The translations under genes and the position numbers were made by a program. A stretch of 64,000 bases of DNA from Nitrospiraceae bacterium (GTDB lineage Bacteria > Nitrospirota > Nitrospiria > Nitrospirales > Nitrospiraceae), in assembly GCA_035457905.1 (NCBI GenBank), contig DATIAT010000032.1:10945-74944 (forward strand). The letters are read 5' to 3'. The notes beneath the pieces are model-generated. The model searched no databases. It was not told the DNA's origin and worked only from the letters and a program-made list of their open reading frames with translations. Shown here piece after piece: positions 38,016 to 59,380 of this stretch (positions within the stretch are counted from its first letter, which is position 1; every line of letters begins with the position of its first letter).

Positions 38016-38543
38016 TTAGTCCACTACCCCACGCCAACAAAACAATTTGGCCCAGAAGAATCCTGCCCAAGGCACCAACACTGCGGGAAGAGGATCTAGA
38101 TCGCCGCGGACGATGGCCACGGCCGACGCACCAATGATCACGACTCCTCCAGCAATGGAGATTGCGGTGACAAACCCGCGCCCTGGGTGCTCGATTGACG
38201 GCACCTCCGGCTCGGTCTTGACCTTGGCCTTCCTGTTTCTCAAGGCCACGGCGGATCGCAGCTTTGCTGCATACACCTCAGGAAAAGTTTTAAAAAGATA
38301 GCGGTGATAGCGCGCTTGCCCCCACCCACACAACCCACCGAGGACGAGCAAGGCTGAACTGGAAAGAAATGTGAGCCAGCTGTATGTATGGTTCATAACC
38401 AGTTGGTAGCCAAGTGATCCCATTGCACCGACCATGCAGATCAATCCAATTGTTCCGGCCCTGAAGAGAATATGGGACCTTACGTAATAGCGAGCTTGTT
38501 CGTCGATCTTTTCCGGTCGCAAAACCGTCACAAGTTTCGGCAT
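38016..38543 (-). CDS. Hypothetical integral membrane protein (about 4 TM)
   Basis: 175 aa with hydrophobic segments. No motif recognised. Confidence 0.45.
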   Translation of the reverse strand: MPKLVTVLRPEKIDEQARYYVRSHILFRAGTIGLICMVGAMGSLGYQLVMNHTYSWLTFLSSSALLVLGGLCGWGQARYHRYLFKTFPEVYAAKLRSAVALRNRKAKVKTEPEVPSIEHPGRGFVTAISIAGGVVIIGASAVAIVRGDLDPLPAVLVPWAGFFWAKLFCWRGVVD

Positions 38544-39154: not shown

Positions 39155-41314
39155 CTAGCTCGGTAAGATATCACTGATCGCGGACCGTTCAACGCGTCCG
39201 ATATTCCTCCACTGATCCGCCATCGGAATCAATGCATGAATTCTCGTCTCAACCGTTTCCAGCCGCTGAGCCAGCGTCGACGTTTTTCTGTAGGCAGCGA
39301 CCATGAGAAAGGATCGTAGCCCTTGCAAGAACATCGTGATCATCGTCGCTTGCACACGGCTGGCCAAATCGTAGAGAGCTTCGACCTGTTCAAGAATCGG
39401 GTCGAGCTGAGATGTCGTCACCAAATCTGTCGCTCCTTGCATTCGCAGACTGGCTAGCGTGGAACTGATGATCGGGACTCTTCGGCGGACTTCCTGCACG
39501 AAATCTTCATCGAGTCGATCAAGTTCCGTCAAGATCCGTCTGACATCGGCAACTTGAAGATGATCGCCTTCCCGCTCAGCCCGTTGGATCACCGCCTCCA
39601 ATACATCCCGAGCCGGCTGCATCGAGCGAGCACGAGCTTGCTGCAGGTCGCGAAGGGCATGAATCAGCGGGACACCGAAGCTCACGGTGAGCGGGGTCTT
39701 CAGCTTGGGGACATCGGGCAACTCAGTCCCGATGGCAGATGGAGCCTGCACCAATTCGCTCACGGTTTCCATAAGATCGTCATCCGTTCCAGCACATTTG
39801 TCCTCGTGGCTTCCTCCTAAACGACGCACAGCTAGACTGATCCGATCCAATCCCTCTTGAAGCGACCGAAGCGCTGCTGTCATCGCGCGTGGTCCCTGCC
39901 GCCCTACGTCGTGGAGAATCGGAAGCAGATTCGAAGCCATCTGCTCAATAGTCTGGAGCTGCACCGTCGACGCAGACTTGGCAAGATTGCTAATTCCTTG
40001 CAAGAGAATCCCGTAGAGCTTCGGACGCAACGTTCCATTCGGCCCTTCGGCGAGCTGTCGCACCGCCATTTGGATTTGCGCCAGCCATTCGTGTGCTTCG
40101 AGGGCAAATAACCCGATGACTTCTTTTTGAAAACCGGCATCCACAACATCCCGGGCAGGAAACCGACCGACCCATCGATGCTCGTCCGACGCCGACCCCG
40201 TTCCACTCGGTGGCACAGAAGTTCTGGACTCGACCGCGCCCTGAATCGCACTTGCCAGAGCATCTAAACCTTCTAAGAGTGCGGTAAACTGATCGGACGC
40301 CGATGGGACCGCTCCGGATGTCTTGGCATGCGATTCATCCGCTGAAAAAGACACTCGCGCGACATCAGGAGGTTCCAATGTCTCGATGATCGACACGAGC
40401 GGGGTAAGGCTCAGGTCGATCTGCGTTCCACTCTGATCACCGGCCGCATCACCCACGATCCGCACGACCGGACGGAGCGGATAGCGCGTATTGACACGCA
40501 CCACAGACCCGACTTGTCCTGTGGTCAATCGCACCGATGTGCCCAGAGGATAGGCAGACAGCTGTTCGACCAAGGCTTTGACGACCTCCCGGGGGAATGC
40601 CGTCCGTTCCGCCACCATCAATTCTCGTACCGCCTCGTGTGGAAAAAACCTTCGGCGATACCCGCGTGGACTGACGAGAGCATCGAAGACATCCACCACG
40701 CCGATAATTTGGGCAAACTCGCTGATTTGCCGCCCTTTCAGCTTGTTGGGGTACCCCTGTCCGTTCCACCGTTCGTGAGCCTGGCGTACCACTTGCGCCA
40801 ACCAATCGTATTTTGAACCCGCCTTTCGAATCGTTTGATAACCGAGCTCGGGGTGTTGTTCGATCAGCATGCGTTCATCATTGGTCAACCGACCCGACTT
40901 GGTAATCAGTGACTGCGGTACGGCAAAGAGACCGATGTCGTGCAGTAGCCCTGCGCAGGTAAGCCTTTCCAATTCTTCCCCGTGATAGCCTAAGCCGGCT
41001 CCCACCTTCGTCGATAAAATCGCCACATTCACAAGATTCGTAATTAACGGAGAACCTGCGGGACCACTCATAGCCTGAACGAGCAATTGATCGCTCTTCT
41101 TGAGCGTCTGCACGATTCTTGTCGCCATGACAAACAAGGCATCCAAATCGAGGTCGCGCTGCTCCTGGACAGCAAGCGCCACATTCGTCAATTGTTCCTG
41201 CGCAGCACGGTAGCAGTCTGTCGCGTTGTATGCGTTCATGACTTGACGACGCCCTTGCGGAACATTCGAATTCGCATCATATGACTTGCTCGAGCCGTCG
41301 AACAAGCCGAGCAT
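39155..41314 (-). CDS. HD-GYP domain protein fused to a C-terminal ~330-aa Hpt-like helical module (no receiver domain)
   Basis: 719 aa. HD-GYP motifs LLHDIGL, EQHPELG, AHERWNGQGYP, DVFDAL (residues ~60-290). Residues ~390-719 align along their length with the product of 41330-42277. Confidence 0.85.
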   Translation of the reverse strand: MLGLFDGSSKSYDANSNVPQGRRQVMNAYNATDCYRAAQEQLTNVALAVQEQRDLDLDALFVMATRIVQTLKKSDQLLVQAMSGPAGSPLITNLVNVAILSTKVGAGLGYHGEELERLTCAGLLHDIGLFAVPQSLITKSGRLTNDERMLIEQHPELGYQTIRKAGSKYDWLAQVVRQAHERWNGQGYPNKLKGRQISEFAQIIGVVDVFDALVSPRGYRRRFFPHEAVRELMVAERTAFPREVVKALVEQLSAYPLGTSVRLTTGQVGSVVRVNTRYPLRPVVRIVGDAAGDQSGTQIDLSLTPLVSIIETLEPPDVARVSFSADESHAKTSGAVPSASDQFTALLEGLDALASAIQGAVESRTSVPPSGTGSASDEHRWVGRFPARDVVDAGFQKEVIGLFALEAHEWLAQIQMAVRQLAEGPNGTLRPKLYGILLQGISNLAKSASTVQLQTIEQMASNLLPILHDVGRQGPRAMTAALRSLQEGLDRISLAVRRLGGSHEDKCAGTDDDLMETVSELVQAPSAIGTELPDVPKLKTPLTVSFGVPLIHALRDLQQARARSMQPARDVLEAVIQRAEREGDHLQVADVRRILTELDRLDEDFVQEVRRRVPIISSTLASLRMQGATDLVTTSQLDPILEQVEALYDLASRVQATMITMFLQGLRSFLMVAAYRKTSTLAQRLETVETRIHALIPMADQWRNIGRVERSAISDILPS

Positions 41315-41329
41315 CGACCTGTAGATTCT

Positions 41330-42277
41330 CTACGAGTGATTGACGGGGAGCAACTGATCGATTGCGGTGCGTTGGGCCCGTCCATGCTCTGCCCACTGAC
41401 GGATGGCGTCGCCCATCATATGCAGCCGGGCCTTCACCGATTCTATCCGCGCAGCAGCCAGAACCACTCGACGCTTCGTCACCACCGTCAATAGACTGTG
41501 CAGTCCAGTGAAAAACATCATGGCCGAGGCTGCATTCACCTGCTGTGATTCCACGCGCAAACGTGCGACATCTTGAAGCGAATCTTCGAGGGCCCTTATT
41601 CGCGTGGAGACCTCGTTTCCGTCAATCTTGAGCGCACTCAGCTTCTTGGCAATCTCAGGCACCCCCTCATCAATCGCTTTCAAGAACGCTTCTTCCGCTT
41701 CAGACACCCGCGCAAGATATCCGTGAATGACCGCAGGATCGATACGTTCAACACCGGCCTGAACCTGCACTTCCATCTGCTCGATCAGACTGCGGATCAG
41801 ATTGCGCCCGGCCATCACACCGGATTGCTGCTTGCTTTCTAGTTCCTGAAGCGCGCGGATAAACTCTCCTGGAGAGAGACTTGCTGAAACCCGCTCAGAT
41901 GCCTCACTACTCCCGTCTTCTTCGAAGGAAACACCTGTCGCATGAGTCAATGCCTTGTGGATCAATCCCAGCTGTTTACAAAACGAGAGAAAGTCCTGAA
42001 CAGAGGGTGATTTTTGTGGGTCCTGGAGAGGTTGGATGTATGGAATGGCCGCAAAACTGGCCTCTTTAACGTCGGAAAGATTAATCGTAGCAGCAGACCC
42101 GCCGAGGTTCGTCACTCCGGCTGAAATCGTTTCAATCAGCTTCGCGTGCCGCTCAGGCGCCGGTCCCTGCTGCAGTTCATCAAGCGCGACATGAATGTTC
42201 TGGAGCCATTCATGAGCTTCCTGAACAAAGAGATCGACCAATTCTTTCTGGAAATCTTCTGGGATGTCGGCGGCCAT
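41330..42277 (-). CDS. Stand-alone Hpt-like (pseudo-Hpt) helical protein, paralogous to the C-terminus of the HD-GYP protein
   Basis: 315 aa. N-terminus FQKELVDLFVQEAHEWLQNIHVAL resembles the start of CheA P1/Hpt domains. The HxxKG position reads VTNLGGSA, with no His. The C-terminus ...GRAQRTAIDQLLP matches ...GRVERSAISDILP of the neighbouring protein. Confidence 0.7.
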   Translation of the reverse strand: MAADIPEDFQKELVDLFVQEAHEWLQNIHVALDELQQGPAPERHAKLIETISAGVTNLGGSAATINLSDVKEASFAAIPYIQPLQDPQKSPSVQDFLSFCKQLGLIHKALTHATGVSFEEDGSSEASERVSASLSPGEFIRALQELESKQQSGVMAGRNLIRSLIEQMEVQVQAGVERIDPAVIHGYLARVSEAEEAFLKAIDEGVPEIAKKLSALKIDGNEVSTRIRALEDSLQDVARLRVESQQVNAASAMMFFTGLHSLLTVVTKRRVVLAAARIESVKARLHMMGDAIRQWAEHGRAQRTAIDQLLPVNHS

Positions 42278-42327: not shown

Positions 42328-43461
42328 TCAAGGCCGTCGCTTTCCGCTCCCCAGCTGAGAGGCCAATCCCGCGATTTCGCCAAGTTTCGCTGCCATCTCT
42401 TCAAATCTCTTGGTGGCTTGCTCGGACGCTTGTTCAGTTTCCGATAAGCGCCTTGCCAGAAGACTATTTCGTTCACGTTCTGTCCGAAGCAGGGCTTCAA
42501 ACTCCTGAGCTTTCTGCGAAGTGCGCTCATTTTCTACAAGCTGTGCGGCTAGATCTCTGCTTCTTTCCTTTTCCGCGGCGAGAGCTTGTTCCAATGTGCC
42601 CACCCGTGCGGTAACCTGTTCCATCTCGGTCATTTGTTCAACCAGTTGCGCGGCAGCCTGTCGCTCGGCGTTCAGAGTCATCTCCAACTCCTGGACACGA
42701 CTCGCATTTTTCCGCAGTTCGGCCAACTGCGTCGCCTGTTGCGCACTGTCTTGTTGCTCCTTCCGAAGCGCCGACTCTAATTCCTGCACACGCCTGCTCA
42801 AGCTCTCCGCCAAAGAAGCTTTGTCCTTGAGTGCAGCGGCCCCCTCCCGCTCGCTCGCCAACATCGCTTCCAGTTCCGTGACGCGACCCAATTGTGCTTC
42901 GAGTTGCGCTACGCGCTGAGCACTATGTGCCGCTCGATCCCGTTCGACCGAAAGCTCTTCCTCCAGCGGCTTCAATCGTGCAGTCGCTTGCCGATAGGCT
43001 TCCAGTTGCTCTTCGTTCTCTCGCGAGCCTTGAATCAATCCGGTCGGCTCAATCACTTTCTCGAAACTCTTCGCAGCAGGTGTGGCAGCGTTTTGCCTCT
43101 TGGCCAACAGCTCGATCACCCGATCCTTGAGAGAGGTGCCCTGAAACGGTTTTTTCAATACACCGTCGGCATGACAGGACTCCGCTTGCTTCGTCACTTC
43201 ATCATTCACAATGCCTGAGATCAGCAGCACCGGAGTATTCGCTGTTCCTCTCTGCGCGCGCACGAAGGCACAAACCTCGTAGCCGCTCTTATCCGGCATA
43301 ATCACGTCGGACACAACCAGATCAGGCTTCTCTTTGGCCAGATAGGCCAGAGCCTCCTCGCCGTTCGCAGCAAGCGTGACTCCAAATCCAGCTTCGGTCA
43401 GCAACCGTTCCGCCACCTTCCGTACGGCGATGCTATCGTCCGCTACTAATACTTTCGGCAT
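42328..43461 (-). CDS. Response-regulator receiver fused to a ~250-aa coiled coil
   Basis: ATG at 43461 (MPKVLVADDS). DLVVSDVIMPDKSGYE and LKKPF are present. The rest is heptad-rich with recurring RV-ELE--L--E segments. Confidence 0.85.
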   Translation of the reverse strand: MPKVLVADDSIAVRKVAERLLTEAGFGVTLAANGEEALAYLAKEKPDLVVSDVIMPDKSGYEVCAFVRAQRGTANTPVLLISGIVNDEVTKQAESCHADGVLKKPFQGTSLKDRVIELLAKRQNAATPAAKSFEKVIEPTGLIQGSRENEEQLEAYRQATARLKPLEEELSVERDRAAHSAQRVAQLEAQLGRVTELEAMLASEREGAAALKDKASLAESLSRRVQELESALRKEQQDSAQQATQLAELRKNASRVQELEMTLNAERQAAAQLVEQMTEMEQVTARVGTLEQALAAEKERSRDLAAQLVENERTSQKAQEFEALLRTERERNSLLARRLSETEQASEQATKRFEEMAAKLGEIAGLASQLGSGKRRP

Positions 43462-43499
43462 GGCAAGATTCTCCCCAGTAACGATTGCGACACAACATC

Positions 43500-43946
43500 T
43501 TACGCGTGAGGCTTTCCAAGCTTGGTCAAACACAGAAGGTCGATCGGCTGACCATCAATCGTACACGTGCCCACGATGACGGAATCAGTTCCATCCGAAA
43601 GATGGATCGATGCGCGATCCAGCGACTGCAAGATTGGCATGTCCGAATCAATGCGCACGGCCATTAACCCATCCTCGTGTTTGGCCAGCAGACACAGAGG
43701 AGGGTCACTCTCTATTGTCAGTTGAAGCTGCCCCGCCAAATCAAAAATCGGCAGTACTTCTTTCCCAAGCCACGTAACAGCATTCACAAACGGCGTCTGG
43801 CTTGGCACCGACACAACCGAAGGCCATTGAACGATACCTCTGACCTCTTCCATACCAGTGGCAAACCGTCGTCCCCCAATAGAAAATATCGTGACCCACT
43901 GCTTCGAGAGAACCGGTTTCTTTCGACTTGCTTGGGACTGCAACAT
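43500..43946 (-). CDS. CheW-like coupling protein (divergent)
   Basis: 148 aa. Single CheW-like domain pattern (VTIFSIGGRRFATGMEEVRGIV...LPIFDLAGQL). Confidence 0.7.
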   Translation of the reverse strand: MLQSQASRKKPVLSKQWVTIFSIGGRRFATGMEEVRGIVQWPSVVSVPSQTPFVNAVTWLGKEVLPIFDLAGQLQLTIESDPPLCLLAKHEDGLMAVRIDSDMPILQSLDRASIHLSDGTDSVIVGTCTIDGQPIDLLCLTKLGKPHA

Positions 43947-44012: not shown

Positions 44013-44540
44013 CTAGAAGCCATGCCCCGCAGCAACCTCAGAGCGCCAGGGCACCACATCGGTCGGCGCCACCAGCCAATCGAGATTGATGATCAAGACA
44101 AGGGCATCTTCGAAGAAGAACAGCCCGTCAAACCATTCGCGTTCAGCCCCGCGGAACTGAGGAGGCAAGGGTACAATGGCCGACCGCTCGACTTCGAGCA
44201 GACTGATTATGCGATCGACCGCATAGGCCTTGCGCCATACTCCGTTGGAACACAAAATCGTCCGCCCCTGGGATGAGAACGGCGTCACCGTTTTGTTTGG
44301 ATTGAGGCGATTGGTCAAATCGCTCTTTTCATATGTCTCGCCCAAAAGCGTAATGGTGTCCTGAAACGTCGCCTCAATCGTTTTCAACAAACCACGGATT
44401 CCTTTCCCCGGAATCGACACCCGCATCGGCGCGCACTCCACGATCAACTGTTGATTCACATTCGTCGGCGCCGCTGAACGGTTTTTACGAACTAGAAGAC
44501 TCATCGGCTCCTTTCCTCCAAGCGGAACCGGCCTGGCCAC
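44013..44540 (-). CDS. CheW-like coupling protein (divergent)
   Basis: 175 aa. CheW-like C-terminal half (YAVDRIISLLEV...LVLIINLDWL). The N-terminal half is less typical. Confidence 0.6.
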   Translation of the reverse strand: MARPVPLGGKEPMSLLVRKNRSAAPTNVNQQLIVECAPMRVSIPGKGIRGLLKTIEATFQDTITLLGETYEKSDLTNRLNPNKTVTPFSSQGRTILCSNGVWRKAYAVDRIISLLEVERSAIVPLPPQFRGAEREWFDGLFFFEDALVLIINLDWLVAPTDVVPWRSEVAAGHGF

Positions 44541-44582: not shown

Positions 44583-47500
44583 TCATGGCTGAACCAGCCC
44601 CTTTTTACCGGCTACCCGCTCGATTTCCTTGAGCAGCGTATGCTCTACAACGGGCTTCGTGATATAGCCGGTCGCACCGACATTGAGCGCAAGTTGCCGA
44701 TGCTTTTCACCCGCGCGCGTCGTCATCACCAAAATCGGCACGGATTGCGTTTGCTGGCGGCTCCTCAATATCTGAATCACTTCATACCCATTCAACTTCG
44801 GCATCTCCAGATCCGTAATGATTAGATTGTAAGCTTGCGTAGACGCTTTGCGGATGCCCTCTTCGCCGTCGCCGGCCGTGGCCACCCGATATCCTGCCGT
44901 CTCCAGCATTCGTCCGATAAATTTACGGATGCTCAATGAGTCGTCGATCAGCAGAATGGACACTGTCTCGGCTGGCTCCGAATCCGATGCCTCCTCGCAG
45001 CCCCCTTCCACGGCACCGACTTCCGGTGTTGCCGAGCTGGCGACCATCGACACGGCCCCGCTCTGACTCGTGAACAGCCTACTCACGTCCAGTACCAAAA
45101 TGACTCGTCCGTCCAGATCGAACGTGGCGCCGGAAAACGGTACCTGCTCCATGAGTTTGAGCGAGCCCAATGATTTGACGACGATTTCCTGCTGGCCCAA
45201 TAATTCGGTGACTGCGAGCCCCATAGGACCGGCATCGGTATGCACAATCACGATGGGCGTCGTGTTTTCAATGGCGGACGAACCGTGGCCGAGCAGGCTG
45301 GATAAGGTCTGGATCTCTACGGCCTCGTCTCCCATCTGCAACAACATCCGGTCTCCCATGTTATGCACAGCGCTCGGCATGGGCAAGGTGATTTCCCGTA
45401 TACTCGCCAACGGAATCGCGTAGTGCATCTCGCCGACACGGACTATCAGCGCCATGGTGATCAGCAAGCTGAGAGGGAGGTGTAAGGAAAACTTTGTACC
45501 AAGCCCCTTCACGGTTTCGATCTCGATGCGGCCGTTCATCGAGCGGATCACGCGCTCTACGACATCCATTCCGATGCCGCGGCCAGCCTGATCGGTTGAC
45601 ACCTCGGCTGTAGAAAAACCCGGCACAAAAATGAAGCGCGTAATTTCCGCGTCGGTCAGCTGTGCCGCCTGATCAGGATTGACCAACCTCTTGGCGATAG
45701 CCGTTGCTTTGATCTTATCGAGATCGAGCCCGCGCCCGTCGTCTTCCACTTCGATCACCACGGCGTTCCCTCGCTGCGCCGCATGCAAGCGGATCGTGCC
45801 TATCGCCGATTTCCCATTAGCCTCCCGGACCTGAGCCGGTTCGATGCCGTGATAGACCGCATTCCGTATCAAATGAATCAGTGGATCGATCAGCCGTTCG
45901 ACCACGCCCGTATCGATTTCCGTGCGTTCGCCGGCCATCGTCAGCTCCACGTCTTTTCCGGTCGCACGTGCGCTTTCCCGCACCGACCGCAAAAACCTTG
46001 TGAACAGCATGCCGATCGACACCATCCTGGTTTTAGTTGTTTGATCCCGTATGCCGGTCGTCAAATCCTGCAGCTGGTTCAACTCGTCCCGTGCAGCCTG
46101 GATCGATGCGTTCAACTGCGAAACCGATTCGCTGATGTCAGCAGCCCCTTCGCCGATCCGCCGAGCCAGGATATTGAAATCGTCGTATTTATCGAACTCC
46201 AACTCGCCGAATTCCGTCACACCGGTCAGAGCCGGCATCGATGCCATGGTCCCTTGAGGCGAAAGGGAAGGCATCGTAAAAGTGTGTTTCTCTTCAAACG
46301 CCTGAATGCCGGTGAGCAAACGGTTCTTGCAAGCTATCACTTGGTGGGTTAACTGATTCAAGGTCTCTAGTCGCCGTTCCAATCGTCCTCGGGTGATGAT
46401 CAGCTCGCCAACGAGATTCAGCAGTTGCTCCAGACGATCCCGTCTGACTCTGATCTGTTGGACATCAGTCGACGCGCCTGTCACATCGGTATCCGGAACG
46501 GGCAATCCCTCCTTCCGTTCAGACTCAGAAGCCGCAGGGAATTCTTGAACCGCTGCGGTCATCGTAGGGGACGCCGGCCGCGGAATGGATCCGGTGACCA
46601 ACGCCTGCCTGAGCGTCGCGAACTCCGCCTGAACCCTCAAAAGTCGGTCTCTCAGTTGAGGCAGTTGCTTGACATCTCGTTGGAGCAAGACACGCACAAC
46701 ATCAATCGTCCGCAGCACGCTGTCCGTAAAGAAAGCGGTAATTTCCAGACGACCATGGCGCACAGCATCGAGATAATCTTCGACCGTATGGACCAAGTCG
46801 CCGATTATTTGAAAGTTGATGGTGTACGCCGATCCTTTAAGTGTATGCACCTTCCCAAACAACTGGTTGATCATCTCTTGGTTTCTGGGATCTTTCTCCA
46901 GCTGGAGAAGAAGGTTTTCGATGCTTTGCAGATACCCCTCGGCTTCCGGAAGAAAATACGAGAGATCGCCGGAATCAAGTTTGGGGATGATATACTCCGC
47001 AGTCAGTTGTGGCGTCGAAGCCGATTCGACAACTGCCGGACTCCCCGAATCGTTCGATGCGACGACGAACTCGACCTGCTCACCCTGCTGAATTCGGCAC
47101 AATGCATCCCTCACGACTGGGATATCCCGTTGAAAGCCGGCCACCTCGTTCAAGTCGCCACGCAGAAGGGACCGGATGATCTCCATCGTACGTTCCACGG
47201 CATTCAACAGCACAGAAGATACCGGAAGCCCGCCGTCGCGAATGGTCACGAGACAATTCTCAAGAGGGTGAGCGAGATCCCCAATGACTTCAAACCCTAC
47301 CGTATAGGCCGATCCCTTGATCGTATGAATGGTCCGAAACAAGGTAAGGATCTGGTCGTTGTCGCCAGGATGCGACCGTAGGTGAGCGACCGCTCCTTTG
47401 ACAGTCTCGAGATATTCCTGAATTTCAGGAACGAAATATGAGAGGACGTCCGCATCGATGGTGGGCATGCAGTATTCCGCCGAAATGGAGATGCCTGTCG

Positions 47501-47936
47501 CAGCGGTCTGCGCCTCGTCCGAGGATGCACCAGAAGGCAAGGCGAACGCCATTAGCGCGGCATAGCGTTGGGTCCATGCGTCCGCAGCCAGGCCTTCGTC
47601 TGCCTCCCCTTTCGCAATACGTTCGATCTGGCGACGGCAGTCTACGACGATTTCCCGAAGCAAGTCGACAGCTTCAGGCCAGCGAGTATGATCAATCTCG
47701 GAGGCGTACTCGAGAACCGTCTCCATCATCTCCCCATATCGAGACAGGCCCATGTATCCGTAATTCAGCGCAGTGCCCTTAAGCTTGTGCGCAAGGATAT
47801 AGTGCTCTTGGAGCGATTCGCAGGACGGAAACGACATATCTGGAGGATTGAGTGCGGTCCACAGCGTTGCCATGTCTTCCAACGTCTCGGCGGTAAAGAT
47901 CTCCACCAGCTCCCTGTTTATTGGTTTCTCACTCAT
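44583..47936 (-). CDS. ChpA-like hybrid CheA kinase: 3 Hpt domains, dimerisation, HATPase, CheW-like and C-terminal REC
   Basis: 1117 aa. Hpt His contexts AHKLKGTA (H50), IHTIKGSA (H204), VHTLKGSA (H364). Kinase boxes HLIRNAVYHGIE, DDGRGLD, GRGIGMDVV, GLGTKF. P5 domain. REC has ILLIDDS...ITDLEMPKLNGYE...ITKP. Confidence 0.93.
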   Translation of the reverse strand: MSEKPINRELVEIFTAETLEDMATLWTALNPPDMSFPSCESLQEHYILAHKLKGTALNYGYMGLSRYGEMMETVLEYASEIDHTRWPEAVDLLREIVVDCRRQIERIAKGEADEGLAADAWTQRYAALMAFALPSGASSDEAQTAATGISISAEYCMPTIDADVLSYFVPEIQEYLETVKGAVAHLRSHPGDNDQILTLFRTIHTIKGSAYTVGFEVIGDLAHPLENCLVTIRDGGLPVSSVLLNAVERTMEIIRSLLRGDLNEVAGFQRDIPVVRDALCRIQQGEQVEFVVASNDSGSPAVVESASTPQLTAEYIIPKLDSGDLSYFLPEAEGYLQSIENLLLQLEKDPRNQEMINQLFGKVHTLKGSAYTINFQIIGDLVHTVEDYLDAVRHGRLEITAFFTDSVLRTIDVVRVLLQRDVKQLPQLRDRLLRVQAEFATLRQALVTGSIPRPASPTMTAAVQEFPAASESERKEGLPVPDTDVTGASTDVQQIRVRRDRLEQLLNLVGELIITRGRLERRLETLNQLTHQVIACKNRLLTGIQAFEEKHTFTMPSLSPQGTMASMPALTGVTEFGELEFDKYDDFNILARRIGEGAADISESVSQLNASIQAARDELNQLQDLTTGIRDQTTKTRMVSIGMLFTRFLRSVRESARATGKDVELTMAGERTEIDTGVVERLIDPLIHLIRNAVYHGIEPAQVREANGKSAIGTIRLHAAQRGNAVVIEVEDDGRGLDLDKIKATAIAKRLVNPDQAAQLTDAEITRFIFVPGFSTAEVSTDQAGRGIGMDVVERVIRSMNGRIEIETVKGLGTKFSLHLPLSLLITMALIVRVGEMHYAIPLASIREITLPMPSAVHNMGDRMLLQMGDEAVEIQTLSSLLGHGSSAIENTTPIVIVHTDAGPMGLAVTELLGQQEIVVKSLGSLKLMEQVPFSGATFDLDGRVILVLDVSRLFTSQSGAVSMVASSATPEVGAVEGGCEEASDSEPAETVSILLIDDSLSIRKFIGRMLETAGYRVATAGDGEEGIRKASTQAYNLIITDLEMPKLNGYEVIQILRSRQQTQSVPILVMTTRAGEKHRQLALNVGATGYITKPVVEHTLLKEIERVAGKKGLVQP

Positions 47937-47986: not shown

Positions 47987-49858
47987 TCAGACCAGCTTGA
48001 ACTGCGCAACCGAGGCCGTCAGACTGTCGGCGAGTTTGGTCATGTCCTCGACCGTCAACCGCGCGGCATCTGTAGCTTTCTGTGTTTCCACGGTGCCACC
48101 CGTGAATTCCTTAATCGAGCACCTCACTTGATCTGCCGACACCGTCTGGTTCGCCGCAGAAGCCGCGATGGTTTCGGCCAACTCGGCCGAACGTTTGGCG
48201 ATTCCCGAAATCTCCTCGAAGACGTCACCGGTCAGCATAGCGGACTTGGACCCGACCTCCACTGCCTTGGTTTCGTTCTCCATCTCAACGACAGCTTCCT
48301 GCGTCTCGCTCTGAATGACTTTGACCAGATCGGCAATTTCGCGCGTCGCTTGCGAGGAACTTTCGGCCAGTTTCCGGACTTGTTCGGCCACAACCGCAAA
48401 TCGCGCACCGGCCTCGCCTGCACCGGCAGCTTCGATCGCCGCGTTCAACGCCAGAAGATTCGTCCGGTTCGCAATCTCTCTGATAGCCGACACAATCTGC
48501 GAAATTTCCACGGATCGATCACCGAGCGCCTTGACCTGCTTCGACATCCGCTGCACGGCGGTCCGAATGCTCTGCATGTCCTCCACGGTTTTCTGCACGG
48601 CCTCACGGCCTCGAGCTGTCGCTTCAAGCACCAGTTTGGCGCTGTCCGACGAAGCGCCGGCAGTCTCCGCCACCTGACGCATTGAGCGCGCCAGGTTTTC
48701 GACAGCTTCAAGTGTCTTCTTCGATTCGTCGGCTTGATGCTTTGCCGTACCGGACATCTGCCTCGTGTTGTCGCGCAACACACCGGAGGATTTATTGACA
48801 CGCTCGGCAGCCTCCCGCACCTGCTTCAACAATTGCCCGAACCGACTGATCATCAGGTTGAATCCGTCGGCCAAGTTGCCGAACATATCTGCTGTTACCT
48901 CACCGCGTTTGGTCAAGTCGCCTTTACCAATATCAGAGACTAAGACCAGGAAACTCATCAACCGCTTTTGCATATCATCGCGCTCGGATTCAGACGTCAC
49001 AAGGGCCGTCATGCGGTCCATCATCGCATTGAACGATGCGGCCATCTGTCCGATTTCATCATTCGATGTGACCTTCGCGCGGGCTTGGTAATGGCCGTCC
49101 GCCGCCGACTTCACGGCGTTTGCGACTTGCCCAATACCCAGCGCCACCTTGTGCGCCGCCCAGTATCCGAGTGCCAAACACACCAGTGCGGCAAAGATGC
49201 CGACGACGATCAACATACGCGTTCCGTCGTCGGCCAGGGCCTGAGCATGTTCATTCAAGTCCTTAGCGACCTCACGCATGTCCAAAACTTGTTCGTGGTG
49301 GCGAGCGACCATCAAATCGAAGGTCGGCTGTATGTTCACCGTGAGGGCCAATTTTCCCAGGTCTCTCATGTGTTCAGCTTGCTCTGCAGAAAGCGACTTT
49401 CCAAAGCTATCGGCCATGACACTGAGGGCTCCCTCTGCATCCTTAAAATATTTATCGATGGCCGACTTTAGAATCGCCAAGTCCTTCTTACCATCTCGGC
49501 CGGACCGCGACACTTGTGGCGCCGTGGCCGCGTAGGAGGCTATAATGCTTTTGACCTTCCCCTGATACGGTGACAGCCGAGCGACATTCACCACATAGTC
49601 GGCATGGCTCGTGACGCCGGCGATACCAGTTAAAATTTGATGATGCGTCGTAAGCGCTGTACCCATTTCAGCGAATTCGGCAAGGGGCAACGTATTACCG
49701 GCATACATCGCCTGAGACGAGGTGGCAGACTGTCGGACCGTCCAGACACCGATCGCCGACATGGTCATAATAATGACACTGATCACTCCGAACGTCGCCA
49801 AAAATTTTGACTTAATTGTTATGCCTTCAGGCCGCTGCGCGACATTGAACTTAGCCAT
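47987..49858 (-). CDS. Transmembrane methyl-accepting chemotaxis protein (2 TM, HAMP, MA domain)
   Basis: 623 aa. Signalling tip [35 protein letters not shown]. Confidence 0.92.
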
Positions 49859-49937: not shown

Positions 49938-50441
49938 TCATTTATTCGTTCCACCGATGTATGACAACAACGCCGGGACTTCGATGACACTGCCCATACG
50001 GCCGGCCAGTTTCAATATGCTCGTCACGAATGGGTGGGCCCCTTCCGGCGACTGCACCGCAGCTGTCACATATTCGTCGGGCAGTAGGTCACGGAGTTCC
50101 GGAACCTTGTCGACCAACACTCCGATTTGCTGGACGCCTTGTTGAATCACAACGGCATATCTTGCGGAAGTCTTCCAGACTGGCAGCCCCAAGGCGGGAC
50201 GCAAATCGGCAATCGGCATGACGACGCCTCTCAAGTTGGCAACACCACATAGCATCGCTGGTGCCCCGGGCACCGGCGTAATAGTCGTAACTTCGAACAC
50301 TTCCCGCACATAACGAAGGTCGATGACGAACGACTGGCCAGCGAGACTCAGCAGGCAGACGCGCATAGGCCGCGTCGCAGCCTTCGCTGACTCGGCCCGC
50401 TCCGCCGTCACATGATGGACGATTCCTTCAGTCTGAGTCAT
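49938..50441 (-). CDS. cheW: CheW coupling protein
   Basis: 167 aa. CLLSLAGQSFVIDLRYVREV...NLRGVVMPIADLR. Confidence 0.88.
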   Translation of the reverse strand: MTQTEGIVHHVTAERAESAKAATRPMRVCLLSLAGQSFVIDLRYVREVFEVTTITPVPGAPAMLCGVANLRGVVMPIADLRPALGLPVWKTSARYAVVIQQGVQQIGVLVDKVPELRDLLPDEYVTAAVQSPEGAHPFVTSILKLAGRMGSVIEVPALLSYIGGTNK

Positions 50442-50471: not shown

Positions 50472-50840
50472 TTACCGCAACGCAGCTTTGATGGCGTCCA
50501 GTAATGCTTCGGCCCTGACTGGCTTCACTAGATAGCTGGCGGCTCCCTGTTGTTGCCCCCAGAACTTGTCACTCTCCTGACCTTTCGAGGTACAGAGAAT
50601 GACGGGGACATGCTTGTAACGATCATCGTTTTTCAAGTCACGACAGGCCTGGAACCCGTCGCGCCCTGGCATCACTACGTCCATCACGACCACGTCCGGT
50701 TTTTCCTTGGCGAGTTTGGCTTCAAGGTTCATCGCATCTGAAAACGACACAACCGTATGGTGCGCCGACCTCAGATACTCCTCAATCAACTTCAGATCGG
50801 CTTGACTATCATCGACCACGACAATCTTGCTCATCATCAT
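50472..50840 (-). CDS. Single-domain response regulator (CheY/PilH-like)
   Basis: Start at the MMMSKIVVVDDS cluster (about 50840; the track ORF extends to 50939). DVVVMDVVMPGRDGF and YLVKP are present. Confidence 0.88.
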   Translation of the reverse strand: MMMSKIVVVDDSQADLKLIEEYLRSAHHTVVSFSDAMNLEAKLAKEKPDVVVMDVVMPGRDGFQACRDLKNDDRYKHVPVILCTSKGQESDKFWGQQQGAASYLVKPVRAEALLDAIKAALR

Positions 50841-51700
50841 CCTCTCGTCATTGAATTGAATGAACCCCTCTCCGTTCGAAGTCCGAGACAAGCTTTCAAC
50901 GTAGTGCTGATGGCGCCAGCCAACTCCCCTTCTTTCCACCCTTCCACGCGCATCGAGGTAATATCGCGTTTTCCCTCAGGGCTGCCATGGCACGATAGAC
51001 AGGATGCCGTAGCATATTCCGGCTGTATCAGAATCGAGTGCCGGCTTCCCGGCTACCAACGTGTTCCTGCCATAGGATTGACCCTTGGGATGTCTAGAGT
51101 CAGCGAACATTCGTAAGTTTTCCGCCTCAAAATCGGCCGGTTTGTTGCCTGAAAATCGGTAGTCGGTTCCCATCAGTTTCAGTTTGATGCCAGGCCGATT
51201 GATCCCTGCTTAATAGGACGCCACCACTTCCTTCTGGGTTTCCAGCTAGCTCCTGAGCAGGGCACCTTGCAAAGTATCGTCGGGCCGACTCAAGTCTATG
51301 TGCTCCAAATTCCTGAATGGGGTCGTGAGGGTCTCGCCCACAAGGATTGGAGTAGATCCTTTATCGCCTTTCGCCGGATCGTTGATTTCGGCTTGATATT
51401 CGGACACCAGTGAATGACTGAGCTTGCGCAGCGACGAGATGGAGTGCTGTTTTGATTTCATTCGCGGCAGCCGTATCGTGAGACACAACCAACCCTGGGA
51501 CAAGACACGTCGTCGCGCAGAGCACTGCGATAATCACTGTTCTGACGCTCATACCGATGTCCTTCTTGGGCACACGTTTCCGCTGACTGCTCAACGATCC
51601 GTCCAAAATGCCAAAGTTCACGCGCACATATCCAGAAGTGTACTGTATTCCGTACTGACTGCAAGGAAATCGGAAAAAGAAACGCACTATGCCGTGTGGG

Positions 51701-52783
51701 TCACAGAGCTCTCCGGCCACCGTCGCGCAATTGACGCATGAGCGCGTCGGGAATATCTCTAAGTGGCAGCACCAGGTCGACGGCCCCTGCCTGAATCGCT
51801 TCTTTCGGCATGCCGAACACGACGCAAGTCGATTCGTTCTGCGCGATCGTATAAGCGCCGGATCGCTTCATCTGGAGCAGCCCAGCCGCCCCGTCGTTAC
51901 CCATCCCGGTCAAAATGATGCCGATGCTGTTCACGCCCGCATGCTTAGCGACCGAGGCAAAGGTCACATCGACAGACGGACGGTGCCGGTTGACCGGCGT
52001 ATCCTGATTGAGGTGGACCAGATAGCGGGCGCCGCTCCGCATGAGGGTCATGTGGTAATTGCCCGGCGCGATCAGCGCATGACCGGGCAGAACACTGTCG
52101 CCGTCTTCGGCTTCTTTCACGGAAATCCGGCACAGGCTGTTCATCCGTTCTGCCCAGGTCTTCGTAAACCGCGCCGGCATGTGTTGAGTAATGAGAATCG
52201 GAGGGCTATGCGGCGGCAGCACTTCCAGCACCTCTTTCACGGCCTCGGTTCCGCCAGTGGAAGACCCGATGGCCACGATGGTATCGGTCGTCTTGATCAT
52301 CCCGGATGCCTCATGCAGCGCGCGACGAGCGACGCTGCACGCAAGTTTTTGGGTTGCCGCGGACACCTTCCCCCGAACCCGAGCGACGGCAGCCGCCTTG
52401 ACTTTTTCGATGAGCTCCTCCGCGAGTTCCTCCATCCCGCGACGGATGTCGACTTTCGGTTTCGTCACGAAATCCACGGCGCCCAGCTCCAACGCTCGGA
52501 GAGCCGTCTCGCAGCCTCGCTCCGTCAACGAACTGACCATCAATACCGGCATGGGCGTGGTCGCCATGAGTTTCTCCAGAAATTTCAGCCCGTCCATGTG
52601 AGGCATTTCCACGTCCAGCGTAAGGACGTCCGGGTGCAACGCCTCGATTTTCGTCCAAGCGCCCGTCGGGTCATGAGCGACGCCAACGACTTCGATATTC
52701 CAATCCTGCGACAATAGATGCGACAAAAACTGCCGGATCAAGGCCGAGTCGTCGACAATTAGCACTCGAATTTTCTTTGTCAT
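51701..52783 (-). CDS. cheB: Chemotaxis response regulator protein-glutamate methylesterase
   Basis: ATG at 52783 (MTKKIRVLIVDDS). REC domain plus a methylesterase domain with IGSSTGGTEA and ...GMGNDGAAGL. Confidence 0.93.
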   Translation of the reverse strand: MTKKIRVLIVDDSALIRQFLSHLLSQDWNIEVVGVAHDPTGAWTKIEALHPDVLTLDVEMPHMDGLKFLEKLMATTPMPVLMVSSLTERGCETALRALELGAVDFVTKPKVDIRRGMEELAEELIEKVKAAAVARVRGKVSAATQKLACSVARRALHEASGMIKTTDTIVAIGSSTGGTEAVKEVLEVLPPHSPPILITQHMPARFTKTWAERMNSLCRISVKEAEDGDSVLPGHALIAPGNYHMTLMRSGARYLVHLNQDTPVNRHRPSVDVTFASVAKHAGVNSIGIILTGMGNDGAAGLLQMKRSGAYTIAQNESTCVVFGMPKEAIQAGAVDLVLPLRDIPDALMRQLRDGGRRAL

Positions 52784-52840
52784 ATCTCCCCGTGCTGGCA
52801 CGTGTGACAGGCTGAAGGGCAGGCCAACGGCAGCCTTCGA

Positions 52841-53488
52841 TCAGAACAACGTGGCATCGCTTTTCGGTGTGTACGGACCATATAAGGCCGTGAACACCTT
52901 CTCTGCCTCGACAGCGCGCACGCGCTCCGCAGAATCGCCCGCCTTCATTAGCACCCGTCCAGTATCCGTATAGTAATAAACACTCCGGGCATAATCCTTC
53001 CCGAGATCGGACGCGACTGGCTGTAGTCCTTCCCGTCCCAGATATTCCAATACCCACTGCACGTTGATGGCGCCGATATCGCCACCCCCCTCATAGAGTT
53101 TTGCGCCACCGAATACTTTGACCTCCAACCGGTTCCTGTGCCCTCCATGCTTGAGTATCCCGTTGATCAGCATTTCCATCGCGTAACTGCCATATCGGGT
53201 TTTCACGTTCCACGCGCTGGAAGAAGCTGAACTGCCAGGTGCCGGTAACATGAAATGATTCACGCCTCCCACACCGGCATACGGATCACGCATGCAGACC
53301 CCCACACATGACCCGAGCAACGTCGAGATGACCACCGGCTTGTGTGAGACGAAGTATTCTCCCGCGAAGAGCGTCACCACCTCGTGATCCGGGAAACGAT
53401 GATGGCGTCGGCGTCGATTCGATGGGCCTTCCATCTGCGGGACGTTGTGATCCTCGAAAGGTTCATTACTCACGGTCCATGCTCGCAC
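52841..53488 (-). CDS. cheD: Chemoreceptor glutamine deamidase CheD
   Basis: VVISTLLGSCVGVCMRDP...GGVNHFMLP, with the catalytic Cys context typical of CheD. GTG at 53488; alternative ATG at 53434. Confidence 0.88.
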   Translation of the reverse strand: MRAWTVSNEPFEDHNVPQMEGPSNRRRRHHRFPDHEVVTLFAGEYFVSHKPVVISTLLGSCVGVCMRDPYAGVGGVNHFMLPAPGSSASSSAWNVKTRYGSYAMEMLINGILKHGGHRNRLEVKVFGGAKLYEGGGDIGAINVQWVLEYLGREGLQPVASDLGKDYARSVYYYTDTGRVLMKAGDSAERVRAVEAEKVFTALYGPYTPKSDATLF

Positions 53489-53520
53489 ACGTTTTCTTCG
53501 GTTCCATGATGCCGTAGCCG

Positions 53521-54345
53521 TTACTCCTGTTTCTGATAAATCGTCGGCGCGATATAATGGAATTCGCCGGAGATCCCCTGCAAGGTCTCCGAGTGACCCA
53601 TAAACAGGTACCCGCCCGGCTTGAGGTATCGAGATAGCCGCGCCAACACTGCTGCCTGAGTCTTACGATCGAAATAGATCATCACATTTCGGCAGAAAAT
53701 CACGTCCAGAGACGACTTGATCGGATACCGGTCATCCATCAGATTGATCCGCCGGAAGACGGCCATTTTGGCAATGTGCGGCTTAATCTTGACGACTTCT
53801 GTGTGGTCACCCTTCCCCAGGAGGAAATGCCGGCGGACGAGATCGGTCGGCAGCGAATTAATCCTCTCAATGGAGTATTGACCGGTCGCGGCCTTGGCCA
53901 GCATGCGGGTCGAGATATCGGACGCCAGGATGCGGCAGTTCCATGTCGAGGGGGAAACGATCGCGTCGGAAAGCGTCATCGCAATGGAATAGGGTTCTTC
54001 GCCGGAGGAGCAGGCTGTGGACCAGATGCGAACCGTTTTTTCCACTGCCAGCTCTGGCAACACCCGCTCTCGAAGAAACGTGAAGTGGTGCGGCTCACGG
54101 AAGAATTCCGTCTGATTCGTCGAAATGTAATCCACCATGGTGATGACCTCGTCACTTTGCCCTCCGACGACAAGGTCATAATAATCCTGAAACGACTTCA
54201 GTCCGAGTTGAGTCAGTCGTTTTTGCAGACGAGAGCTAAACAACGCTCGCTTGTGATCTGTCAAGTTGATTCCGCACTCCCGGTATATGAGCGCGCGAAA
54301 TCGCTCAAACACATCATTATTGAGGAGATATTGCTGTTCCATCAT
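53521..54345 (-). CDS. cheR: Chemotaxis protein methyltransferase CheR
   Basis: 274 aa. N-terminal helical domain, TNQTEFFREPHHF, and SAM fold RIWSTACSSGEEPYS. Confidence 0.93.
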   Translation of the reverse strand: MMEQQYLLNNDVFERFRALIYRECGINLTDHKRALFSSRLQKRLTQLGLKSFQDYYDLVVGGQSDEVITMVDYISTNQTEFFREPHHFTFLRERVLPELAVEKTVRIWSTACSSGEEPYSIAMTLSDAIVSPSTWNCRILASDISTRMLAKAATGQYSIERINSLPTDLVRRHFLLGKGDHTEVVKIKPHIAKMAVFRRINLMDDRYPIKSSLDVIFCRNVMIYFDRKTQAAVLARLSRYLKPGGYLFMGHSETLQGISGEFHYIAPTIYQKQE

Positions 54346-54584
54346 GGTTTGGTCATATTCAGGTTCAAGCCAGCGTGATCTTCCACGCGCAGCCGCAGAC
54401 TATCCCCCTGACCATCATGGACGCATGTAGTGATCGTGGGCAGGAAGCGCCAGGTATGTCACAACCTGCGGGAATCAGTCTATGGAATCCCTGCGAGGCC
54501 CCTCGCGTTTATTTTCGGCTATCGCAATGCTGTTCCACATTCCGTTTCATAATCAGCGGCAACGCATGGTGTCATTCACTATTT

Positions 54585-55610
54585 CTATTTGAGCTTCTGC
54601 ACAATAGCCCCATACCATCCAAGGCCATCATACTCCTGGTAACCAAGAGTCTTGGCAAACGCGATCACCTCATGGTTGTCATTGAAATAATGACCTTTGG
54701 GTTGTCCTTTATGGTCGAGCACGAATGGGGAAAGGATTTCATTATTGTCGGATGCTGCAATAACACGCATATTCTGATCCAACAACATCACGCGGCTGCG
54801 TTTCCATTCGTTGTCAGATAAAGAAGGCTCTTTCTGAACAACAGTCTTGGCTTGGTCTTCCCAATCAAACACTACGCCCAAGACACCGACTATCTTCCCA
54901 TGTATTTTCCCCCCCTGACGAACGGCGGCGGCGTATACCGCCACCAATCTGTTGTCATGAAGCGAAGCACGGAAAATATCATCCGCAACGTACTGATCAC
55001 CGCTCGTCGTCGCCATCGCCTTCCGGAACCAAGGTAATCTGGAAATATTGGCGCCGGTTACCCTAGGGAACTTAGTTGGCTGTGAGCAGGCGATGATTTG
55101 TCCATCAGTTCCAACCAATACAAGATTCAGATACACGGAATAATAACGATTGATCAGGGCAAGCCGTTCCACAGCACGATGAATGGAAGTTTGATCCAAT
55201 GATTCCAAACAGCGGACTAACGCCTCGTCCGTCGCCCACCAACGAACGTCAGCGGTGCGTTCGTATAAATTGCGTACAACAAACTGCACCAAAGTCAGCG
55301 CCATCTCCGAAAGACGTTGACACTCTTTTTCAACGAAACGCCGCTGCAATTCACTCGTTTCCGATCGTATGGTACCCAGCTCTTTAGAAGTGCTGGAAGC
55401 TTGTCCGGCAAGAGTTTTTACCTCGGAGGCAACCACGGCAAATTCCCTGCCCGCATTACCAGCTCTCGCCGCCTCTATGGTTGCGTTTAGCGAAAGAAGC
55501 TTGATTTGACTTGTTATTCTTTGATTCATGGATATATGGTCTTCGATCCGCTTTTCTATGCCACCTATGATGTCTTTGATGTTTTGCTGACTTCTTGTAG
55601 AGATATCCAT
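54585..55610 (-). CDS. Soluble protein with an N-terminal minimal MCP signalling hairpin followed by a Cache/PDC-like sensor domain
   Basis: 341 aa, no TM segment. Residues ~30-70 [37 protein letters not shown] match the MCP hairpin tip. The remaining ~230 aa ([16 protein letters not shown]...) look like a Cache/PDC-type ligand-binding fold. The start is firm: AAGGAG 9 nt upstream and an in-frame TAA two codons upstream. Confidence 0.7.
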
Positions 55611-55934
55611 TCTTTATTCTCCTTCGCCGAATATCCTCAGCTTGCTGGGGGACCTCCATAGAACGGAGGGACTCCTCACCCGCTCGCAATAGCTCGTCCG
55701 CCCTGAACCCTGTCGCCATCATCGAATCCGAATTGACGCTGAAGTCCCTATCCACCATGAGGCCCGAAATCGGACATGCTCGAGTGCAGGAGCACAAAAG
55801 CCGCATCTGGACATAGCGCGCGTCTGCCAATGGTCGATGCGGTCGAAGTAGATGCGTACGGGGAGCGAACGCCTTGCAGCACCGTTGGATCAATTGAAAC
55901 CACATAAGGCCGTTCAATACGACGTACCGTTGTC

Positions 55935-58715: not shown

Positions 58716-58792
58716 AGCATTGCCCCTTCCTTTAATTTCTTGTCGTGGCCTTGCCGCTTGTGCCCAACCCTCTCATCACTCTGAAACTTCTC

Positions 58793-59296
58793 TCATGCCG
58801 TCGCAGCGGCCGCCTCTTGCATGCACCCCTCGGTCAGTAACTGATCGATATTCAGCAGCGCCACCAACTTGTCGCCGGATTTCCCGATGCCGGACAAAAA
58901 TTTCACATCTATTTTGGTTCCAAAGTCCGGGGAGGCCTGGATGTCCTTTTGGCTCATATGGACAACATCCGACACGGAGTCCACCACCAGCCCAAGCGTG
59001 CGATCTCGCACAATCACGAGGATGATGACGGTAAACGCCGTGTAGTCAATGGTCGGCATGCCAAACGCCGTACGTAATTCGACGATCGGTACAATGGTGC
59101 CGCGGAGGTTCAAGACCCCTTTGATGTGCGAGGGCATGTTCGGAATTTTGGTGATGGCCGAATACCCCTTGATCTCTTTGACCCGATGGATGTCTATCCC
59201 ATACAGTTCATCTCCAAGAGAGAAGGTCAGGAACTGGTTGTCTTCCGCCCCGATTCCCTGCTGTTGTCCAGATCCTTGCGCGGCTACCGCGGTCAT
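58793..59296 (-). CDS. cheW: CheW coupling protein
   Basis: FLTFSLGDELYGIDIHRVKEI...NLRGTIVPIVELR. I prefer the ATG at 59296 (AGGAGGAGGACGCT upstream) over the track TTG at 59347, which lies inside a repeat. Confidence 0.9.
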   Translation of the reverse strand: MTAVAAQGSGQQQGIGAEDNQFLTFSLGDELYGIDIHRVKEIKGYSAITKIPNMPSHIKGVLNLRGTIVPIVELRTAFGMPTIDYTAFTVIILVIVRDRTLGLVVDSVSDVVHMSQKDIQASPDFGTKIDVKFLSGIGKSGDKLVALLNIDQLLTEGCMQEAAAATA

Positions 59297-59341
59297 AGCG
59301 TCCTCCTCCTGGCGTTCCGGTTTGTCCGGACGATCTTGCAT

Positions 59342-59377: not shown

Positions 59378-59380
59378 TAT

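Follow-up and report, generated by a model that had tools for sequence, protein, structure and literature searches.

Histidine phosphotransfer (Hpt) domains, such as the P1 domain of CheA, bind both receiver (REC) domains and the P4 domain of CheA. The fold also occurs without its phosphorylatable histidine, as in FimL of Pseudomonas aeruginosa, which has two Hpt-like domains with glutamine in place of histidine, is homologous to the N-terminus of ChpA and is needed for CyaB-dependent cyclic AMP synthesis (PMC3019171); FimL binds PilG and FimV (PMC10519157). Here we describe a comparable arrangement in a 64,000-nucleotide stretch of DNA from a Nitrospiraceae bacterium (assembly GCA_035457905.1, contig DATIAT010000032.1, positions 10,945 to 74,944 of the forward strand), called the window below. 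A stand-alone protein of 315 residues, MOD (41330-42277, minus strand), stands near the end of a ChpA-type chemosensory operon and comprises two tandem Hpt-like bundles lacking the histidine, the first clearly an Hpt homolog by sequence and the second more diverged. A paralog of this module forms the C-terminus of the adjacent 719-residue HD-GYP protein (39155-41314, minus strand).

MOD resembles FimL in being a protein separate from ChpA, in its paralogy with the Hpt part of that kinase, in having two Hpt-like domains devoid of histidine, and in its association with a ChpA-type system; FimL links that system to a cyclic-nucleotide enzyme (CyaB) and binds a CheY-like receiver (PilG) as well as a polar hub. 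The differences, judged by setting MOD beside the published description of FimL, are as follows. FimL has glutamine at both sites, whereas MOD has threonine (serine in the fused copy) in bundle 1 and a variable residue in bundle 2; FimL comprises ~560 residues of ChpA-like sequence, compared with ~320 in the module; and its partner is an adenylate cyclase acting in trans, whereas the putative partner of the module is an HD-GYP domain, either adjacent or fused. Unlike FimL, MOD is encoded inside the operon, next to the gene for a receiver followed by a coiled coil (RECcc). No FimL-like chain was found among the matches of our profile searches against the PDB.

Histidine-less domains are likewise known within ChpA itself, where the Xpt domains (Spt, Tpt and unnamed ones) were not phosphorylated in vitro and have been proposed as scaffolds, their function being acknowledged as unknown (PMC10782961, PMC12632253). 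The module shares with them the Hpt fold, serine or threonine at the histidine position, and an origin in systems of the type IV pilus (Tfp) and alternative cellular function (ACF) class, but the Xpt domains belong to the kinase chain itself, whereas here the bundles reside in a separate gene or form one protein with an output domain. The notion of a pseudo-HPt is on record for plants (PMC11497342), in which AHP6 and other pseudo-HPt proteins (PHPs) have the HPt fold without histidine and act in a phosphorelay by protein-protein interaction; these are eukaryotic and single-domain, with asparagine at the site and no link to a cyclic-nucleotide enzyme, and the likeness is one of analogy, not orthology. 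Finally, RpfG (REC-HD-GYP) provides a precedent for an HD-GYP output under His-Asp phosphorelay. RpfG carries its own receiver, whereas the 719-residue protein carries the Hpt-like partner fold, so that any receiver must act in trans; its HD-GYP domain also lacks more active-site residues than that of RpfG. A preprint surveying HD-GYP proteins, in which the term "Hpt" occurs 0 times, makes no mention of an Hpt-containing architecture. The assignment of an Hpt fold is in itself unsurprising to a specialist; what sets the module apart from known cases is threonine or serine at site 1, the compactness of the tandem (~320 residues), its placement within the operon, named members found only in Nitrospirota, and its fusion to a non-canonical HD-GYP domain.

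The tandem bundles of the module

The N-domain of MOD (bundle 1, residues 7-115; 41933-42259, minus strand) is, on sequence evidence, clearly a homolog of Hpt/CheA-P1 four-helix domains, in which V-T56-N-L-G-G-S-A-A-T replaces H-x-L-K-G-S-A. By BLASTP, MOD residues 17-67 matched residues 328-375 of the third Hpt domain of ChpA (Hpt3) at 37% identity (E=5e-5), with ISAGVTNLGGSAATINL of MOD aligned over LFGKVHTLKGSAYTINF of Hpt3, which places T56 (codon at 42110-42112, minus strand) on the histidine of VHTLKGSA and G59 on the lysine. The single MOD sequence reached only E~0.5 to CheA P1 in a phmmer search of the PDB, and a family profile was therefore needed. One built from 53 diverse family N-domains matched Thermotoga maritima CheA P1 (2ld6) across all four helices at E=3.6e-10, with threonine on His45 and glycine on Lys48, as well as 1tqg (1.4e-9), further structures of CheA P1 and an HPt protein from rice. 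Individually, 49 of these 53 members matched Pfam Hpt (PF01627), the best at 4.2e-10; the match of the window MOD (residues 12-73, E=4.8e-4, 20.7-21.8 bits) falls under the cut-off of 24.6, and NCBIfam holds no model for the protein. The AlphaFold2 (AF2) model has helices at residues 7-36, 41-64, 68-84 and 93-114 (pLDDT ~75-85), with T56 in the second.

An earlier note on this DNA, made from the letters alone, had proposed that the N-terminal ~100 residues resemble the Hpt domains of ChpA and that threonine or serine replaces the histidine at the HxxKG position. Both proposals are borne out by the Hpt3 match, by the 2ld6 profile alignment and by an alignment confined to window sequences, in which the four genuine Hpt domains (three from ChpA and the P1 of a second CheA) all have histidine in the column occupied by T56 and S442 in the two module copies. 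The lysine position of bundle 1 is taken by glycine or alanine. Profile and structure searches placed the module in no unrelated known family.

Loss of the histidine extends across the family. When 1.84 billion representative proteins were searched with a profile, 311 relatives (50% identity clustering) were recovered, of which 85 scored at E≤1e-30; most are 305-360 residues long and a few ~700. Residue columns were taken from 56 full-length modules that differ pairwise by more than 50%. The bundle 1 acceptor column holds threonine in 47, serine in six and alanine in three; the residues that follow are N46, L54, G42, G51, S56, A56, A52 and T53, and glycine stands at the Hpt lysine position in 42 of the 56. 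No conserved histidine was found in these modules, the most His-rich column reaching 16 of 56 (29%), which disposes of the concern that a phosphorylatable histidine had been misplaced by hand alignment. Two candidates for such a misplaced acceptor were rejected: H22 (EAHEW), in a column of Q26/R11/L5/H4, and H260 (GLHSLL), in a column of E15/H13/Q13/R5 on helix C'. The module has no histidine on helix B within H-x-x-K-G, the defining feature of a functional Hpt domain, and is thus a pseudo-Hpt.

The same columns bear on whether bundle 1 retains some chemistry of its own. Thr56 and Ser442 might themselves be phosphorylated, as a "Tpt/Spt"-like non-canonical phosphocarrier, in line with threonine or serine in 53 of 56 acceptor positions, with one clade that keeps the T-N-L-K-G-S-A context whole and has only its histidine changed, and with the description of P. 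aeruginosa ChpA as having Spt and Tpt domains. We regard this as very improbable, given the alanine at the acceptor in three members, the loss of the lysine in most, and the want of a conserved acceptor in bundle 2; moreover, no kinase chemistry is known for transfer from CheA P4 to threonine. The histidine-less domains of ChpA were also unphosphorylated in vitro (PMC10782961).

A second chemical role would be that of an auxiliary phosphatase, the bundle docking on a phosphorylated receiver with Thr56 and Asn57 positioning the hydrolytic water, and so terminating the Chp signal. Amide and hydroxyl residues serve in known REC phosphatases (Gln147 of CheZ, an asparagine in CheX, the E/DxxT/N motif of HisKA), T56 (84%) and N57 (82%) are conserved across the family beyond the needs of the fold, and the operon genes that were scanned showed no CheZ, CheC or CheX. 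However, there is no acidic partner at i-3 or i-4, position 53 being mostly arginine, and the pair itself changes, to S-N in the fused paralog and to A-N or T-S/T-T in some members; we regard this role, too, as very improbable.

The C-domain (bundle 2, residues 133-311; 41345-41881, minus strand) consists of two short helices and a four-helix bundle, and is the more diverged of the two. With the full-length MOD model (6-sequence alignment, pLDDT 75), Foldseek results were dominated by fusions of G-protein-coupled receptors with BRIL and by designed bundles, Hpt structures appearing at E~0.3-0.4, and the C-domain was therefore modelled alone. Its 183 residues gave a six-helix domain of high confidence (AF2, 47-sequence alignment; pLDDT 92.7, pTM 0.85), whose top Foldseek matches in the PDB are mostly Hpt, P1 and AHP structures, with probabilities of ~1.0 and E-values of 0.06-0.5. 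Modest E-values of this kind are usual for small helical bundles. The matches include CheA P1 of Salmonella typhimurium (1i5n) and T. maritima (1tqg), the P1-CheY complex 2lp4, and the P1 of Rhodobacter sphaeroides CheA3 (3kyj; TMt 0.60, root-mean-square deviation 3.8 Å), followed by the plant proteins AHP1, AHP2, ZmHP2 and MtHPt1, whose layout resembles the six-helix arrangement, and by HptB and ArcB; the entries 9h6e, 7c1i and 2a0b are among the top matches, and designed four-helix bundles are interspersed among the Hpt structures.

Profile comparisons point in the same direction. MOD residues 198-296 aligned with residues 17-114 of the same protein at 87% in a profile-profile comparison (hhalign, E=3.9e-6), and the C-domain profile matched the designed repeat protein BRIC2 at E=7e-4, in a part close to T. 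maritima CheA P1, and 2ld6 itself at E=0.09; nine of 47 C-domain members matched Pfam Hpt (best 1.5e-6). The acceptor equivalent is A238 in MOD, and its column is variable, with A9/Q9/R8 the commonest residues. This bundle holds the strongest family-specific motifs (W295, G299, R300, E302, R303, R284 and R277), the last helix carrying a conserved W-x3-G-R-x-E-R-x-A-I. The earlier note had described an Hpt-like module of ~320 residues; its Hpt derivation and lack of histidine stand, and the module is two bundles in tandem. The contrast which that note drew between GLHSLL in one copy and GLRSFL in the other is present (residues 258-263 and 665-670, respectively), yet this histidine lies on helix C', one helix past the acceptor, in an unconserved column.

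The fused copy (residues 390-718 of the 719-residue protein; 39161-40147, minus strand) has Ser442, within G-I-S-N-L-A-K-S-A, and Glu645 at the acceptor equivalents of bundles 1 and 2. MOD residues 9-311 aligned with residues 395-718 of that protein in one collinear BLASTP alignment (28% identity, 46% positives, E=6e-30), which contains each of the four matching blocks singled out from the letters; the end-to-end paralogy first read from the sequence is thus real, far beyond chance, and both open reading frames (ORFs) lie where they had been placed. In a neighbour-joining tree of low resolution the fused modules form a clade of their own, which identifies the fused copy as an old paralog and not a recent duplicate.

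Operon context and the HD-GYP partner

MOD and the HD-GYP-module gene form the end of a chemotaxis-like operon of ChpA type, all on the minus strand. By Pfam assignment it begins with a single-domain REC (50472-50939), a CheW (49938-50441) and a methyl-accepting chemotaxis protein (MCP) of 4HB-HAMP type (47987-49858), continues with the ChpA-type kinase (44583-47936; three Hpt domains, dimerization, HATPase, CheW and REC domains, recognised by Pfam and motifs) and two CheW-like genes (44013-44540 and 43500-43946), and then reaches RECcc, 50 bp upstream of MOD. The kinase keeps the histidine in all three Hpt domains (AHKLKG, IHTIKG and VHTLKG). RECcc (ORF 42328-43533, 401 residues; 42328-43461 from the likely start at Met25) has a receiver (Pfam Response_reg, 9.4e-23) whose active site is intact (DD, D76, S106 and K128), followed by ~230 residues of coiled coil; it was considered as a carrier of the pseudo-Hpt module and rejected, the module being absent from its sequence. 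A gap of 15 bp (41315-41329) separates MOD from the HD-GYP gene, downstream of which lies a 175-residue gene (38016-38543, minus strand), syntenic in 50 loci, for a predicted membrane protein with ~4 hydrophobic segments and no Pfam or PDB match.

All named family members belong to Nitrospira, Nitrospiraceae, Nitrospirales or Nitrospirota metagenome-assembled genomes, including ones only 23-33% identical to the window MOD. One locus labelled "uncultured Cytophagia bacterium" (L053, CAYNDW010000217.1) has the complete arrangement from ChpA to MOD and HD-GYP at 65-80% identity to the window proteins, and its label is probably a binning error. The order REC-CheW-MCP-ChpA-CheW-CheW-RECcc-MOD-HD-GYP+module-175aa is conserved across 80 genome loci (L001-L080), a set retrieved with a 10-sequence alignment and comprising Nitrospira-like loci only. 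Most Nitrospira loci have an extra gene of ~265 residues between MOD and HD-GYP, encoding an ExeA/GspA-like AAA_22 ATPase (for example at 10946-11796 in L002, with another such gene at 10108-10902 in L086), which the window is without.

Outside this set, the HD-GYP partner varies. In L083, within the same chromosomal neighbourhood (lpxD, acp, fabF, lptFG), MOD is followed by an orthologous but unfused HD-GYP protein of 368 residues, which is 46% identical to residues 35-364 of the window protein and ends where the linker to the module starts, a Rosetta-stone pattern. The distant loci L085 and L087 have Chp operons ending in the REC-coiled-coil gene and MOD, with no HD-GYP. The HD-GYP partner is therefore a lineage-specific addition, being absent, adjacent and unfused, or fused. 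The suggestion that the module tethers or regulates the HD-GYP enzyme must be narrowed in this light: it is not primarily an HD-GYP accessory, since MOD closes Chp operons that have no HD-GYP or adjoins one that is unfused.

In every surveyed locus the immediate upstream neighbour of MOD codes for a coiled-coil protein, and this protein bears a receiver in all except L081 and L082, where a 193-residue coiled-coil gene without a receiver precedes MOD. A ChpA-type operon precedes MOD wherever upstream sequence suffices, with the same two exceptions: no ChpA gene was found in the ~6 kb upstream, a stretch occupied by a truncated ORF of DUF5649 repeats (>1600 residues). In these two loci (region 7323-13101 in L081), which represent one Nitrospirales lineage, a mobile-element-like insertion lies downstream of MOD, with genes for Mob_CxxC, an N6_N4 methyltransferase, an Eco29kI-type restriction enzyme, a NikA-like protein and an integrase.

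Divergence within the operon is block-wise. Over the 80 loci, identity to the window correlates between MOD and HD-GYP (r=0.94), the 175-residue gene (0.88) and RECcc (0.82), but not between MOD and ChpA (0.17), any CheW (0.09-0.26) or the MCP (0.23). Only L015 and L056 match the core block (REC-CheW-MCP-ChpA-CheW-CheW) at ~85% identity, against ~50% in all other loci. The output block (RECcc-MOD-HD-GYP-175aa) keeps an identity of 54-82% throughout and diverges independently of the core; it therefore behaves as a cassette that is combined with very different ChpA cores. This pattern speaks, if weakly, for the adjacent receiver rather than ChpA as the partner of the module.

Such findings also bear on a decoy or inhibitor role, in which the histidine-less bundles would compete with the three Hpt domains of ChpA for P4 or for receivers, damping or insulating phosphotransfer in the manner of AHP6. 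This draws on the same Hpt homology, on the capacity of Hpt domains to bind both P4 and REC, and on the presence of the module in operons without HD-GYP, which makes a role within the phosphorelay plausible. The divergence of MOD does not track that of ChpA, however, and the fusion or adjacency to an HD-GYP protein with no other input domain points to an output link. We consider a decoy role rather unlikely, though it is compatible with an adaptor function.

The module could also be a generic helical interaction or oligomerisation domain, independent of receivers and binding the coiled coil, the 175-residue membrane protein, the ExeA-like ATPase or pilus parts, its Hpt ancestry being purely historical. 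The position of the strongest family motifs in bundle 2, far diverged from Hpt, speaks for such a domain, as do the conserved neighbours, namely the coiled-coil and membrane proteins, joined in most genomes by the AAA_22/ExeA-like ATPase. The helix A/B surface of bundle 1, on the other hand, is very Hpt-like and under strong constraint, and the module is nearly always associated with REC-bearing genes, and we accordingly hold a receiver-independent domain to be improbable.

The 719-residue protein consists of an N-terminal helical region, the HD-GYP domain (residues ~88-260; 40535-41053, minus strand), a small beta region, a linker and the fused module. Pfam recognised HD_5 (1.5e-30) and HD (1.2e-13) at residues 92-233, and neither Response_reg nor any other recognised input domain. 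Aligned to PmGH (4mcw), the domain keeps the HDIG motif (residues 125-128), the histidine of EQH, H-E-R, GQGYP (185-189) and DVFDAL, together with K139, R217 and R220, the equivalents of K235, R314 and K317 that contact cyclic di-GMP (c-di-GMP) in PmGH. We compared the PmGH metal ligands E185, H189, H221, D222, H250, H276, H277 and D305, as well as D183 and K225, and found D183 replaced by serine, E185 by leucine and H189 absent or replaced by leucine (S-P-L-I-T-N-L; SPLITNLVNV), K225 by leucine (HDIG-L) and H276 by alanine (QAHERW). Five fused homologs and the unfused ortholog share all of these deviations without variation.

In PmGH, the substitutions H189A, H276A, D183A and K225A abolish activity, yet active RpfG is also without the E185 and H189 equivalents (PMC4159591), and phosphodiesterase activity is therefore uncertain; a weakened enzyme or a c-di-GMP receptor is possible from the sequence. 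The description of this protein as an HD-GYP enzyme holds for the HD-GYP signature, but not for the full metal and catalytic set, and it may not be an active phosphodiesterase. If the domain is a dead or crippled receptor, the fused pseudo-Hpt could be its effector arm, clamping or releasing the REC-coiled-coil receiver upon c-di-GMP binding, with the stand-alone paralog as a c-di-GMP-independent competitor. We hold this to be improbable; if true, c-di-GMP would feed back on a chemosensory phosphorelay via a phosphate-blind Hpt fold, and the protein would be a "reverse-polarity" response regulator, an output protein bearing an Hpt instead of a REC domain. A dCache-GAF-GGDEF protein, a putative diguanylate cyclase, is encoded at 17975-20173 (plus strand), ~19 kb from the HD-GYP gene.

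The operon is flanked downstream by lipopolysaccharide and fatty-acid genes. Directly upstream of it lies a canonical chemotaxis cluster (51701-61594, minus strand) with CheA (59381-61594), CheW (58793-59347), a dCache-HAMP-PAS MCP (55935-58715), CheR (53521-54345), CheD (52841-53488) and CheB (51701-52801); elsewhere in the Nitrospiraceae, the place upstream of the first REC is taken by a Tll0287-like gene. A 341-residue ORF (54585-55610, minus strand) has a partial MCPsignal domain (residues 19-82) followed by a partial dCache domain (residues 139-249), the reverse of the normal order in an MCP, and overlaps a 153-residue ORF (region 54585-55917); rearrangement or disruption of a chemoreceptor gene may explain it. 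The window was found to contain no Rfam family and no tRNA, and a scan for promoters and terminators gave results at chance level only.

Possible role of the module

Because both bundles have lost the histidine, and bundle 1 also the lysine, the module cannot act as a canonical phosphate relay. By analogy with FimL, our preferred reading is that it may instead be a non-phosphorylatable adaptor linking a receiver domain to HD-GYP, and to this we give about an even chance. The module is a dedicated terminal component of ChpA-type (Tfp/ACF-like) chemosensory operons in Nitrospirota. Judging by what Hpt domains are known to bind and by the FimL analogy, a receiver domain would be engaged by the conserved helix A/helix B face of bundle 1 (F-x2-E-x3-LF-x2-EA-x-EW and T-N-L-G-G-S-A-A-T); the adjacent REC-coiled-coil protein would be the best candidate for that receiver. 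No phosphate would be accepted, and the module would serve as adaptor or scaffold, putting HD-GYP under phosphorelay control or vice versa. In Nitrospiraceae, coupling to HD-GYP would occur in trans where the two are unfused and in cis where the old module paralog is fused at the C-terminus, and the stand-alone MOD, retained in the fused lineages, could either contend with the fused copy over one receiver or share that receiver in cooperation with it.

Several points weigh against an adaptor of this kind. The conservation of G-G-S-A-A-T may reflect helix packing and not a binding surface, and the correlation of identities within the output block reflects linkage or recombination blocks and is no proof of physical contact. 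HD-GYP is missing in some lineages, so that the ancestral role must have been other than coupling to it, and the Thr/Asn pair is conserved beyond what mere loss of function would entail, leaving room for a chemical role. The Hpt derivation of the C-domain, lastly, is held with moderate confidence in view of its Foldseek E-values and the small share of members that match Pfam Hpt.

For ChpA-type systems, the role of Hpt domains without a phosphorylatable histidine has been named outright as an open question, and the Nitrospirota family described here sets such domains apart in a small gene, which some lineages have welded to a defined output domain. Since unfused, fused and HD-GYP-less variants occur naturally, the adaptor hypothesis is directly testable with a few recombinant proteins, namely the module, the three receivers and the HD-GYP protein. 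The family also adds an HD-GYP architecture beyond those in the existing census, and suggests a way in which nitrite-oxidising Nitrospira, with their key part in nitrification and in the biofilms of wastewater, may link chemosensing with c-di-GMP.

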